Source of the DNA: Escherichia coli
GTDB lineage: Bacteria > Pseudomonadota > Gammaproteobacteria > Enterobacterales > Enterobacteriaceae
Strand: one strand, 5' to 3'
DNA: 64,000 bases
Assembly: GCF_003334315.1 (NCBI RefSeq)
Contig: NZ_QOWR01000001.1
In this document: one piece after another, positions 2,269 through 7,829 of the stretch
How positions within the stretch are numbered: position 1 is the stretch's first letter
Layout: each line of letters opens with the position of its first letter
Translations under genes and position numbers: made by a program
The notes under the pieces: model-generated
Databases searched by the model: none
What the model was told of the DNA's origin: nothing
What the model saw: only the letters and a program-made list of their open reading frames with translations

Positions 2269-4590
2269 ATGATGAATGATTCGTTCTGCCGCATTATTGC
2301 GGGTGAAATTCAGGCGCGCCCGGAACAGGTTGACGCTGCCGTTCGCCTGCTTGACGAAGGGAATACCGTGCCGTTTATCGCACGTTATCGTAAGGAAATC
2401 ACCGGCGGTCTGGATGACACGCAGCTGCGTAATCTGGAAACGCGTCTGAGCTATCTGCGCGAGCTGGAAGAGAGACGTCAGGCGATCCTCAAGTCCATTT
2501 CCGAGCAAGGCAAACTCACCGATGATCTGGCGAAGGCCATCAACGCCACCCTAAGCAAAACCGAACTCGAAGACCTCTACCTGCCCTACAAACCTAAACG
2601 CCGCACCCGCGGGCAAATCGCCATTGAAGCAGGGCTTGAGCCGTTGGCTGACCTGCTGTGGAGCGATCCGTCACACACGCCAGAAGTCGCCGCTGCACAA
2701 TATGTTGATGCCGATAAAGGCGTGGCAGATACCAAAGCCGCGCTGGATGGCGCGCGCTATATCCTGATGGAACGGTTTGCCGAAGATGCCGCGCTGCTGG
2801 CGAAAGTGCGTGATTATCTGTGGAAGAACGCGCATTTGGTTTCTACGGTGGTGAGCGGTAAAGAAGAGGAAGGGGCGAAATTCCGCGACTATTTCGATCA
2901 TCACGAACCGTTGTCCACGGTGCCTTCTCACCGCGCGCTGGCGATGTTCCGTGGGCGTAACGAAGGCGTACTCCAGCTTTCGCTGAATGCCGATCCGCAG
3001 TTCGATGAGCCGCCCAAAGAGAGCTATTGCGAGCAAATCATCATGGATCACCTTGGCCTACGCCTGAACAATGCCCCGGCGGATAGCTGGCGCAAAGGCG
3101 TAGTGAGCTGGACCTGGCGCATCAAGGTGCTGATGCATCTGGAAACCGAACTGATGGGTACCGTGCGCGAACGCGCGGAAGATGAAGCAATCAACGTCTT
3201 TGCCCGTAACCTGCACGATCTGCTGATGGCGGCCCCTGCCGGACTGCGTGCAACGATGGGCCTCGATCCGGGTCTGCGTACTGGGGTAAAAGTGGCGGTG
3301 GTCGATGCCACTGGCAAACTGGTAGCGACCGATACCATTTACCCGCACACCGGACAAGCCGCAAAAGCAGCGATGACCGTTGCTGCCTTGTGTGAAAAAC
3401 ATAACGTTGAACTGGTGGCGATCGGCAACGGTACAGCTTCCCGCGAAACTGAACGTTTCTATCTCGACGTGCAGAAGCAGTTCCCGAAAGTGACCGCACA
3501 GAAAGTGATCGTCAGCGAAGCTGGCGCGTCGGTTTACTCAGCTTCCGAGCTGGCAGCGCAGGAGTTCCCGGATCTCGACGTTTCGCTGCGTGGCGCGGTG
3601 TCTATCGCCCGCCGTTTGCAGGATCCGCTGGCGGAGCTGGTGAAAATCGATCCGAAATCTATCGGCGTAGGTCAGTATCAGCATGACGTCAGCCAGACGC
3701 AACTGGCCCGCAAACTGGACGCAGTAGTAGAAGACTGCGTAAACGCCGTTGGCGTCGATCTCAACACTGCTTCTGTTCCGCTGTTAACCCGCGTGGCGGG
3801 CCTGACGCGCATGATGGCGCAAAACATCGTGGCCTGGCGCGATGAGAACGGCCAGTTCCAGAACCGTCAGCAACTGCTGAAAGTCAGCCGTCTGGGGCCG
3901 AAAGCCTTCGAGCAGTGCGCGGGCTTCTTGCGCATTAACCACGGTGATAACCCGCTGGATGCTTCTACCGTCCACCCGGAAGCCTATCCGGTGGTGGAAC
4001 GCATTCTGGCAGCAACACAGCAGGCACTGAAAGATCTGATGGGTAACAGCAGCGAACTGCGTAACCTGAAAGCGTCTGACTTTACTGATGAAAAATTCGG
4101 TGTGCCGACAGTAACTGACATCATCAAAGAGCTGGAAAAACCGGGTCGCGATCCGCGTCCGGAATTTAAAACCGCTCAGTTTGCCGATGGCGTCGAGACA
4201 ATGAACGACCTGCAACCGGGTATGATCCTCGAAGGTGCGGTGACCAACGTCACCAACTTTGGCGCGTTTGTCGATATCGGCGTGCATCAGGACGGCCTGG
4301 TTCACATCTCTTCATTGTCGAACAAGTTTGTGGAAGATCCGCATACCGTGGTGAAAGCGGGCGACATTGTGAAGGTGAAAGTGCTGGAAGTGGATCTTCA
4401 GCGTAAACGTATCGCCCTGACTATGCGTCTGGACGAGCAGCCTGGCGAAACCAACGCCCGTCGCGGCGGCGGTAATGAACGCCCGCAAAACAACCGCCCG
4501 GCAGCCAAACCACGCGGTCGTGAAGCGCAGCCTGCCGGTAATAGCGCGATGATGGATGCGCTGGCGGCGGCAATGGGCAAAAAACGTTAA
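2269..4590 (+). CDS. tex: Tex-like RNA-binding protein (S1 domain, YqgF/HhH)
   Basis: 773-aa ORF; Tex/YhgF sequence with C-terminal S1-like segment ([21 protein letters not shown]...). Confidence 0.93.
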
Positions 4591-4615
4591 ACGCCCGGAC
4601 TGGCCCCTAAACCTG

Positions 4616-4644
4616 CGCGATAAGGCGTTCACGCCGCATCTGGC
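4616..4644. repeat. REP-like element after tex
   Basis: GCGATAAGGCGTTCACGCCGCATCTGGCA resembles the inverse REP consensus. Confidence 0.5.
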
Positions 4645-4671
4645 AACGAACGCCTTGCCTGACATAAAAGT

Positions 4672-4698
4672 GCCGGAGAATATCTCCGGCCTTTTTAT
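4672..4698 (+). terminator. Rho-independent terminator after tex
   Basis: GCCGGAGA-ATA-TCTCCGGC hairpin followed by CTTTTTATT. Confidence 0.75.
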
Positions 4699-4898
4699 TC
4701 CACAACCAAACTCATAATATATTCCGGCAATATTTATCACTTCATTAACAACTGAAACCTTAATTAAACATTAGCCAGTCCGGGTAATTCACTATTCGAA
4801 TTATATTTTCGCTGCGATATAACCTTGAGCCACATCAACATTGAGTCAGATTATTATTCAAACCAACATTCGCACACATTTTAAGTATTGCTGATAGA

Positions 4899-4936
4899 AA
4901 CCATTCTCATTATCATTGTGTTGTTGATTATTTAAT
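4899..4936 (+). promoter_or_regulatory. Fur-box-like and FNR-like motifs in feoABC promoter region
   Basis: ATTCTCATTATCATTGT (Fur-like) immediately followed by TTGATTATTTAATC (TTGAT-N4-ATCAA-like) about 100 nt upstream of feoA. Confidence 0.5.
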
Positions 4937-5027
4937 CTCTCCTTTGTTGGCAAATCATCTGGTCTCATGTCGCTGTCAAACGCCCCATGAGGTAGTTATC
5001 CAGTTAATGAGAAACAAGTAGGCACCT

Positions 5028-5255
5028 ATGCAATACACTCCAGATACTGCGTGGAAAATCACTGGCTTTTCCCGTGAAATCAGCCCGGCATATCGCCAAA
5101 AACTGCTTTCTCTTGGCATGTTACCTGGCTCCTCTTTTAATGTGGTGCGCGTCGCTCCACTCGGCGACCCCATTCATATCGAAACCCGTCGTGTGAGCCT
5201 GGTATTACGCAAAAAAGATCTGGCCTTATTAGAAGTGGAAGCGGTTTCCTGTTAA
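5028..5255 (+). CDS. feoA: Ferrous iron transport protein FeoA
   Basis: 75-aa [17 protein letters not shown]... directly upstream of feoB. Confidence 0.95.
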
Positions 5256-5271
5256 TACGGTGATAACAACA

Positions 5272-7593
5272 ATGAAAAAATTAACCATAGGCTTAATTGG
5301 TAATCCAAATTCTGGCAAGACAACCTTATTTAACCAGCTCACTGGCGCACGTCAGCGTGTAGGTAACTGGGCTGGCGTTACCGTCGAACGTAAAGAAGGG
5401 CAATTCTCCACCACCGATCATCAGGTCACGCTGGTGGACCTGCCCGGCACCTATTCTCTGACCACCATCTCATCGCAGACCTCGCTCGATGAGCAAATCG
5501 CCTGTCACTACATTTTGAGTGGCGACGCCGACCTGCTGATTAACGTGGTGGATGCGTCTAACCTTGAGCGTAACCTGTACCTGACGCTACAACTGCTGGA
5601 ACTCGGCATTCCCTGCATTGTGGCACTGAACATGCTCGACATTGCCGAGAAGCAAAATATTCGTATTGAAATTGATGCTCTGTCGGCGCGTCTGGGCTGT
5701 CCGGTGATCCCGCTGGTTTCAACCCGTGGTCGCGGTATTGAAGCGCTCAAGCTGGCGATTGATCGCTATAAAGCTAACGAGAATGTGGAACTGGTACATT
5801 ACGCACAGCCGCTACTCAACGAAGCAGATTCACTGGCAAAAGTGATGCCTTCCGACATCCCGCTGAAACAACGTCGCTGGCTGGGCCTGCAAATGCTGGA
5901 AGGCGATATCTACAGCCGCGCCTACGCCGGTGAAGCGTCGCAGCATCTTGATGCCGCCCTCGCCCGTCTGCGTAATGAGATGGACGATCCGGCGCTGCAC
6001 ATTGCCGATGCGCGTTACCAGTGCATTGCTGCCATCTGTGATGTGGTAAGCAACACCCTGACGGCAGAACCCAGCCGTTTCACCACTGCGGTAGATAAAA
6101 TCGTGCTCAACCGTTTCCTCGGTCTGCCGATTTTCCTCTTTGTGATGTACCTGATGTTCCTGCTGGCTATCAACATCGGCGGGGCGTTACAGCCGCTGTT
6201 TGACGTCGGCTCCGTGGCGCTATTTGTGCATGGTATTCAATGGATTGGCTACACGCTCCACTTCCCGGACTGGCTGACTATCTTCCTCGCCCAGGGCCTG
6301 GGTGGCGGCATTAACACCGTGCTGCCACTGGTGCCGCAGATTGGCATGATGTACCTGTTCCTCTCCTTCCTTGAGGACTCCGGGTATATGGCGCGTGCGG
6401 CGTTTGTGATGGACCGTCTGATGCAGGCGCTGGGCTTGCCGGGGAAATCCTTTGTGCCGCTGATCGTCGGTTTCGGTTGTAACGTACCGTCGGTAATGGG
6501 TGCACGTACGCTTGATGCACCGCGTGAACGTCTGATGACCATCATGATGGCACCGTTTATGTCCTGCGGCGCGCGTCTGGCTATCTTCGCAGTATTCGCG
6601 GCTGCCTTCTTCGGGCAGAACGGTGCGCTGGCGGTCTTCTCGCTGTATATGCTGGGTATTGTGATGGCGGTGCTGACTGGCCTGATGCTCAAGTACACCA
6701 TCATGCGCGGTGAAGCGACGCCGTTTGTCATGGAGTTGCCGGTCTATCATGTACCACACGTTAAAAGCCTGATTATCCAGACCTGGCAGCGTCTGAAAGG
6801 CTTCGTTCTGCGTGCTGGTAAAGTGATCATCATCGTCAGCATTTTCCTGAGCGCTTTCAACAGCTTCTCGCTGAGCGGGAAAATCGTCGATAACATCAAC
6901 GACTCGGCGCTGGCGTCCGTCAGCCGGGTGATCACCCCGGTCTTCAAGCCAATTGGCGTGCATGAAGATAACTGGCAGGCAACGGTTGGCCTGTTTACAG
7001 GTGCCATGGCGAAAGAAGTGGTAGTGGGTACGCTCAACACCCTCTACACCGCAGAAAATATTCAGGACGAAGAGTTCAATCCGGCAGAATTTAACCTCGG
7101 TGAAGAGCTGTTCAGTGCGATAGATGAAACCTGGCAGAGCCTGAAAGACACCTTCAGCCTTAGCGTACTGATGAACCCCATTGAAGCCAGCAAAGGCGAC
7201 GGCGAAATGGGTACCGGGGCGATGGGCGTGATGGATCAGAAATTCGGTAGCGCAGCAGCAGCTTACAGCTACCTGATTTTCGTCCTGCTGTATGTACCAT
7301 GTATCTCGGTGATGGGGGCTATCGCCCGTGAATCAAGCCGTGGCTGGATGGGCTTCTCCATCCTGTGGGGGCTGAATATCGCTTACTCACTGGCAACATT
7401 GTTCTATCAGGTCGCCAGCTACAGTCAGCATCCAACTTACAGCCTGGTGTGCATTCTGGCGGTTATCCTGTTTAACATCGTGGTTATCGGTCTACTGCGC
7501 CGCGCGCGTAGCCGGGTGGATATCGAACTGCTGGCAACCCGCAAGTCGGTAAGCAGTTGCTGCGCAGCCAGCACCACCGGTGATTGCCATTAA
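5272..7593 (+). CDS. feoB: Ferrous iron transporter FeoB (GTPase + permease)
   Basis: Track ORF 5260..7593 (GTG); recognised start [25 protein letters not shown] (G-protein P-loop) at ATG 5272. Confidence 0.95.
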
Positions 7594-7829
7594 TGGCTTC
7601 ACTTATTCAGGTGCGCGATTTGCTGGCGTTACGGGGCCGTATGGAAGCGGCCCAGATAAGCCAAACATTGAACACTCCACAGCCAATGATTAACGCCATG
7701 CTGCAACAACTGGAAAGTATGGGCAAAGCCGTGCGGATTCAGGAAGAACCTGACGGCTGCCTCTCTGGCAGTTGTAAAAGCTGCCCGGAAGGAAAAGCCT
7801 GTCTGCGCGAGTGGTGGGCGCTGCGTTAA
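7593..7829 (+). CDS. feoC: FeoC, small Fe-S winged-helix protein
   Basis: Track ORF 7584..7829; [15 protein letters not shown]... with Cys cluster [15 protein letters not shown]; ATG overlaps feoB stop by 1 nt. Confidence 0.9.

Follow-up and report, generated by a model that had tools for sequence, protein, structure and literature searches.

Known Fur and FNR control sites in the feoABC promoter region of an Escherichia coli contig

That Fur and FNR control the ferrous iron uptake operon feoABC of Escherichia coli K-12 has been in print since 1993, the sites have been mapped genome-wide, and little is at stake here. The annotation of two Fur boxes at feo goes back to Kammler et al. 1993, as recorded by Chen 2007 (PMC2189734). 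Fur is known to repress a feoA-lacZ fusion, and deletion of fur raises feo transcript levels (Gerken 2020, PMC7315122; Beauchene 2015). Activation of feo by ArcA, OmpR, and FNR has likewise been described (Gerken 2020, PMC7315122; Park 2013, PMC3798270; Beauchene 2015; Myers 2013). In the study of Beauchene 2015, Fur repression of the feoA fusion was seen only in anaerobic growth because the feoA promoter needs ArcA and FNR, and Myers 2013 found no FNR-dependent change in feoABC expression in iron-replete medium, which was ascribed to masking by Fur. In Yersinia pestis, feoABC is the same operon with a Fur site at a promoter, but it has two promoters and shows no effect of FNR or ArcA (O'Connor et al. 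2017). Here, we analyzed the region upstream of feoABC in a stretch of 64,000 nucleotides of an E. coli contig (NZ_QOWR01000001.1), referred to below as the window. An initial annotation had proposed iron- and anaerobiosis-responsive control of the operon. This is correct, the regulators being Fur and FNR, but it has been textbook knowledge since 1993, and everything that we found on feoABC control is already in the literature, with nothing new to add to it.

The flanking genes define a long intergenic gap between tex and feoA, and the three feo gene calls all exceed the curated NCBIfam cut-offs.

2269-4590: open reading frame of yhgF/tex, upstream of the gap
5028-5255, plus strand: feoA (NCBIfam NF007106, 161 bits against a cut-off of 102)
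5272-7593, plus strand: feoB (NCBIfam NF007105, 1642 bits against a cut-off of 683)
7593-7829, plus strand: feoC (NCBIfam NF011960, 176 bits against a cut-off of 111)
4672-4690, plus strand: intrinsic terminator hairpin 3' of tex/yhgF, GCCGGAGAATATCTCCGGC followed by a T-run (terminator scan)

As the initial annotation had it, the gap is long (437 bp) and AT-rich (41% G+C, compared with ca. 52% for the 64-kb window), and it carries both of the strings singled out there, the Fur-like ATTCTCATTATCATTGT at 4903-4919 and the FNR-like TTGATTATTTAATC at 4924-4937, which are 4 nt apart. The whole gap (4591-5027) was matched in every one of the complete E. coli genomes searched (5,426/5,426) and was 100% identical in several of them, ATCC 8739 among them. 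The terminator hairpin closes the tex transcription unit and is the upstream limit of the feo control region. Around it, the REP-like element and the tex terminator together (4614-4707) gave Rfam matches to naRNA4/CssrE (26.2 bits, threshold 59.5) and STnc390 (26.9 bits, threshold 50); these subthreshold matches are probably just the REP/terminator hairpin.

Direct alignment showed that positions 4741 to 5035 of the window are the same as K-12 MG1655 letter for letter, so coordinates published for K-12 convert exactly (window position = U00096.2 position - 3,533,157, a conversion verified on the ArcA and FNR sites). The differences from MG1655 comprise one single-nucleotide polymorphism inside the ArcA-P site and OmpR-bound repeat (C4740, T in K-12), two more substitutions in the tex-feoA gap (4691 and 4705), and a 19-nt indel accompanied by several substitutions in REP-like DNA just past the tex stop codon (4598-4625), outside the control region. 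In order to compare the region across the Enterobacteriaceae, we collected 80 loci from ca. 35 genera with a FeoA scan, of which 76 distinct sequences were used to measure conservation. These were compared in MAFFT alignments; an ungapped anchored comparison lost the register.

The stretch from 4700 to 5027 is the known promoter/operator region of E. coli feoABC. Park 2013 (PMC3798270) gives an ArcA site (3537888-3537908) at -191 to -171 from a mapped feoA start, a numbering that places the start at 3538079, which is window position 4922. This start is second-hand, from one supplementary table, and was not found when sought in primary start-site data (Kim 2012 supplements). It gives feoA a leader of 106 nt, with the ATG (5028) at +107.

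4922, plus strand: feoA transcription start, back-calculated from Park 2013 and probably good to ca. 2 nt
4888-4893, plus strand: putative -35 hexamer TTGCTG (-34 to -29), matching 3 of 6 positions
4912-4917, plus strand: putative -10 hexamer TATCAT (-10 to -5), matching 5 of 6 positions, conserved
5016-5022, plus strand: likely ribosome-binding region AAGTAGG, 5 nt short of the ATG of feoA

TTGCTG and TATCAT are separated by 18 bp, and TATCAT ends 5 nt before the start at 4922. A strict promoter scan of 4550-5100 called no promoter; it missed this pair because the -35 hexamer matches only 3 of 6 positions, and the two hexamers are consequently inferred from conservation together with the reported start site. 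The -35 hexamer reads TTGATG in most other genera, and its TTG is at least 95% conserved. The predicted fold of the leader (4922-5045) had a z-score of -0.10, with no sign of structured RNA, and an Rfam search of the gap returned no family matching the feo leader. The block CAAGTAGG around the ribosome-binding region is conserved in the 62 loci with a long leader. We also observed a 9-nt inverted repeat, TTCTCATTA (4904-4912) and TAATGAGAA (5005-5013), the second copy of which lies just 5' of the ribosome-binding region and has weak Fur (11/19) and FNR (8.1 bits) scores. Salmonella and Klebsiella do not retain this second copy, and the repeat is therefore probably due to chance.

The Fur-like string proved to be a real Fur operator, already known, as indicated by phased consensus matches, conservation, and a ChIP-exo footprint.

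4890-4923: Fur operator array (-32 to +2), covering the putative -35 and -10 hexamers and the start; coincides with the Fur ChIP-exo footprint
4903-4919: Fur-like string ATTCTCATTATCATTGT, three tandem hexamers ATTCTC, ATTATC, and ATTGTG
4840-4858: weaker upstream Fur box (about -82 to -64), the other box annotated by Kammler

The three hexamers are the reverse complements of GAGAAT, GATAAT, and CACAAT, that is, Fur hexamers of the GAGAAT/GATAAT type. We scored Fur sites here with three published consensus strings and with shuffled sequences, and took in addition the published scores of Chen 2007. Against the 19-bp consensus GATAATGATAATCATTATC, the array matches 12, 13, and 13 of 19 positions at starts 4890, 4896, and 4902, in steps of 6 bp. 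Chen 2007 (PMC2189734), whose matrix was built from 24 proven sites with a cut-off of 10 bits (the weakest proven site) and strong sites of at least 17 bits, lists overlapping Fur sites at 3538059 (10.9 bits, window position 4902) and 3538065 (13.4 bits, window position 4908). Fur ChIP-exo in MG1655 gave peak P104 at 3538047-3538080, in iron-replete cells only (Gao 2023, PMC10164565), which maps through the identical K-12 sequence to 4890-4923. Among the 76 distinct Enterobacteriaceae sequences, the ATTCTCATTATCATTGT string is 93% conserved and the stretch 4886-4917 is 91% conserved, and the Fur core ATT(C/A)TCATTA was found in 80 of 80 loci, as ATTCTCATTA or, in three Raoultella loci, as ATTATCATTA. 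The upstream box at 4840-4858 is a different matter. Chen 2007 (PMC2189734) gives it a 10.5-bit site at 3538006, centered on window position 4849, but its consensus matches are just 9/13 to 11/19, CA(A/G)ATTA alone is partly conserved, and the ChIP-exo list of Gao 2023 has no separate peak for it.

The initial annotation also counted feo as the second Fur-type site in the window, next to ryhB, which is a fair statement.

45787-45851, minus strand: RyhB (Rfam, 83.1 bits)
45883-45901: ryhB Fur box just upstream of RyhB, 16/19, the best consensus match in the window

The ryhB Fur site of Chen 2007 (PMC2189734), at 3579054, falls on this box. The ryhB peak of Gao 2023 (PMC10164565), P106 at 3579165-3579195, corresponds to ca. 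46008-46038 in the window and lies ca. 125 nt from the box. The sole other triplet of Fur-consensus matches phased by 6 bp in the window is at 48824-48848, within AATATTTATTATAATTATGATTA, in a very AT-rich spacer of the yrhA/yrhD-yrhB region where some E. coli strains carry an IS1. This triplet is likely a by-product of the AT richness.

The second string did not fare as well. TTGATTATTTAATC is not an FNR site, as it lacks a second half, falls 3' of the transcription start, and has no FNR-like counterpart at its place in the orthologues. It is the start of the feoA transcript.

4924-4937, plus strand: FNR-like string TTGATTATTTAATC (+3 to +16), initial transcribed region, not an FNR site
4825-4838: FNR site TTGAGCCACATCAA, centered at ca. 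-90.5 from the start, matching 9 of 10 consensus positions

We scored both with a symmetric matrix built from 62 predicted sites under FNR ChIP-seq peaks (Myers 2013 Table S6), with feoA excluded and with the caveat that these training sites had themselves been picked with a matrix. Matrix scoring, a check that had been named along with the original claim, gave TTGATTATTTAATC a value of -13.7 bits, a rank of 7,470 among the 63,987 positions of the window, 12% of which score as well or better. Against the inverted repeat TTGAT-N4-ATCAA that defines an FNR site, the string matches 5 of the 10 specified consensus positions, all of them in a lone TTGAT half that occurs 197 times in the 64-kb window, and its other half, TAATC, matches 0 of 5 against ATCAA. 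In contrast, TTGAGCCACATCAA scored 15.6 bits, ranking first of the 63,987 14-mers in the window and falling near the training-set median (15.7), and it is the site listed in Myers 2013 Table S6 under the feoA FNR ChIP-seq peak (3537982). The site thus lies 86 bases upstream of the FNR-like string, outside the stretch considered in the initial annotation, and the Fur and FNR sites are not stacked as had been described there, since the 3' end of the real FNR site precedes the Fur-like string by 64 nt. A lone TTGAT beside a Fur box should accordingly not be taken as an FNR site. The window holds further one-mismatch matches to TTGATNNNNATCAA at 2705, 5759, 34350, 41983, 43136, 48390, and 49798 (8 in all, compared with 2.5 expected); none of these seven others exceeds 12.2 bits with the FNR matrix, and most are intragenic.

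The comparison across genera gave the same picture. The FNR half-sites are 94% conserved, compared with 60% for the four spacer bases, as should be the case for a genuine site. Of the 80 loci, 76 have an FNR match scoring 9 bits or more at 50 to 100 nt upstream from the Fur core. Measured from the first base of the FNR site, the Fur core lies 77 to 78 nt away in 76 of 77 loci, that is, at a distance fixed within 1 bp (apparent distances of 83 to 84 arose from the pattern catching the next hexamer). This constancy is found across DNA that is only ca. 60% identical between the FNR site and the Fur core, while the ATG follows the Fur core at anything from 52 to 130 nt. Given the published binding on identical sequence, the scoring, and the conservation, we are highly confident that the Fur and FNR sites at feo are correctly identified and placed.

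Some genera have a different layout. The leader of feoA is ca. 70 nt shorter in Enterobacter, Lelliottia, Leclercia, Huaxiibacter, and Silvania loci (L038-L040, L046, L054, L058, L061, L067, L070, L071, L074-L077, and L079), in which the Fur core is 52 to 57 nt from the ATG, compared with 106 to 130 nt elsewhere. These loci retain the FNR site, the Fur array, the 77- to 78-nt spacing, and GATTATTTAACC, so that most of the E. coli leader appears to be dispensable. In Cedecea (L068 and L078) and Klebsiella indica (L069), no FNR-like site was found at the usual distance from the Fur core. Both Cedecea loci carry perfect FNR consensus sequences, TTGATCTAAATCAA and TTGATTTAAATCAA, ca. 376 to 387 nt upstream of the ATG, in a different promoter layout.

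Three further elements of the region, absent from the initial annotation, are the weaker second Fur box described above, an ArcA/OmpR site, and a repeat of the RstA type.

4731-4751, minus strand: ArcA-P site (-191 to -171), overlapping the OmpR-bound TTATCA..TTAACA repeat
4863-4878, plus strand: candidate RstA/OmpR-type direct repeat CCAACAttcgCACACA (-59 to -44), just upstream of the -35 hexamer

The ArcA-P site is taken from Tables S3, S4, and S6 of Park 2013 (PMC3798270). Binding of OmpR to a fragment with the TTATCA..TTAACA repeat was shown by electrophoretic mobility shift assay (EMSA) by Gerken 2020 (PMC7315122), who also proposed the RstA/OmpR-type repeat, at -165 to -150 from the feoA ATG. 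The block ACATTC..CACATTTT at this candidate repeat is moderately conserved. Together, these sites give the following arrangement. The sigma-70 promoter, with its putative -35 and -10 hexamers and its start near 4922, lies beneath the array of Fur hexamers, and Fe2+-Fur bound to 4890-4923 blocks RNA polymerase when iron is plentiful, the classical form of Fur repression, which would depend on ATTCTCATTATC of the array. Anaerobic activation comes from upstream, through FNR on TTGAGCCACATCAA, centered at ca. -90.5, with ArcA-P, and also OmpR, expected to bind 4731-4751 upstream of the feo promoter.

Given the base composition of the gap, we considered whether the Fur-like string might be no more than a chance product of AT-rich intergenic DNA. 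In dinucleotide shuffles of the gap, a single match of at least 13/19 to GATAATGATAATCATTATC appeared in 16%, and a comparable phased cluster does exist in the AT-rich spacer at 48824-48848. By sequence alone, the string is therefore only modestly unusual, but two such matches 6 bp apart appeared in just 1.4% of the shuffles and the phased 12/13/13 triplet in 0.18%, and what makes the site solid is its 93% conservation over ca. 35 genera and the published data, which place it inside the ChIP-exo footprint and document Fur-dependent regulation. We give virtually no credence to a chance origin. Nearly as little can be said for TTGATTATTTAATC as an FNR site adjoining the Fur box. It does have one perfect TTGAT half-site, and its block is conserved above the neutral flanks (74% compared with 55 to 57% in the 76 distinct sequences), but the negative matrix score, the empty second half, and the sheer frequency of TTGAT all speak against it, as does its place at +3 to +16, since a protein bound there would act as a repressor and not as an activator. 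Along similar lines, FNR scores in the 45 nt that follow the Fur core do not exceed 3.6 bits in any of the 80 loci, the string is lost in Klebsiella, Raoultella, Kluyvera, and Kosakonia, and the site listed by Myers 2013 for the ChIP-seq peak is TTGAGCCACATCAA, farther upstream, which makes this reading extremely improbable. The conservation of the block could also mean that 4924-4937 is a downstream extension of the Fur array, or some other operator, and not a neutral leader. The string contains ATTATT (4927-4932), in 6-bp register with ATTCTC, ATTATC, and ATTGTG at 4903, 4909, and 4915; GATTATTTAA(T/C)C is kept in the Escherichia/Salmonella/Citrobacter and the Enterobacter/Lelliottia/Leclercia clades despite differing flanks; and Fur clusters of 19 to 142 bp have been reported by Chen 2007 (PMC2189734). 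Against this, the ChIP-exo footprint stops at 4923, the consensus matches are weak (11/19 and 9/14), the block is gone in several genera that retain the core array, and its conservation could merely reflect constraint on the initial transcribed sequence. We regard such an extension as unlikely, and the conservation of +6 to +17 in some clades may reflect either a continuation of the Fur array in register or constraint at the transcript start. A NagC-type site at 4928-4948 was considered and dropped, as it has no palindromic partner.

The position of the FNR site raises the question of how FNR acts. A center at ca. -90.5 is atypical when compared with the standard -41.5 (class II) or about -61.5 (class I), and for specialists it is this unusual distance, with a spacing that stays constant across genera, that may be of interest. 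FNR could well be a far-upstream activator of the class I type that contacts the alpha C-terminal domain of RNA polymerase, a mode in which our confidence is middling and for which the main argument is the spacing of 77 to 78 nt between the FNR site and the Fur core. FNR is reported to activate synthetic promoters from sites near -61, -71, -82, and -92, in work by Wing, Williams, and Busby dating from 1995. The main rival is that FNR drives a separate class II promoter with a start near 4873, which would put the FNR site at -41.5 and turn the Fur array at 4890-4923 into a roadblock at about +17 to +50, with the Fur box at 4840-4858 overlapping the promoter. Most FNR-activated promoters are class II (FNR was at -41.5 in 19 of 23 directly activated promoters and at -60.5 in one in Myers 2013), the 10.5-bit Fur site adjoins the FNR site, and published start data may omit anaerobic, iron-poor conditions. 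However, the stretch where its -10 hexamer should lie (4857-4870) offers no plausible candidate (best match, 3/6) and is poorly conserved, the conserved block is 4886-4917, with the good -10 TATCAT and the TTG of the -35, and one mapped start has been reported. A class II promoter is thus judged unlikely. Returning to class I-type activation from ca. -90, feoABC might represent a conserved case of a kind hardly documented in natural promoters and, separately, GATTATTTAA(T/C)C at +6 to +17 an undescribed operator or extension of the Fur array, a suggestion that we put forward as possible but doubtful.

In order to put these features into perspective, we compared the locus with the known systems. 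The feoABC region of Yersinia pestis (O'Connor et al. 2017) has no detectable DNA similarity to that of E. coli. In classical Fur-repressed promoters, such as ryhB, hexamers of the GATAAT type likewise lie in a 6-bp register over the core promoter, and the occupancy of feo by Fur in iron-replete cells only is the same as in these promoters. The feo site is weaker, with 13/19 and 13.4 bits, compared with 16/19 for ryhB and at least 17 bits for the strong sites of Chen. Class I activation by FNR or CRP-type regulators also works from a single palindromic site well upstream of the -35, as found at feo, where the FNR site keeps a distance to the core promoter that is constant within 1 bp across genera, as expected if the face of the helix matters. 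In contrast to the class I cases, the FNR site of feo, at ca. -90.5, is further upstream than in nearly all characterized FNR-activated promoters, and candidate sites of the RstA/OmpR type and a weak Fur box sit between it and the -35. The closest system by far is the K-12 feoABC promoter itself (feoAp; Kammler et al. 1993 and later genome-wide studies). It differs from this locus in the base at 4740 of the ArcA/OmpR site (C here, T in K-12) and in the 19-nt indel past tex, and is identical from 4741 to the feoA ATG; the two share the Fur array, the FNR site TTGAGCCACATCAA, and the ArcA/OmpR site.
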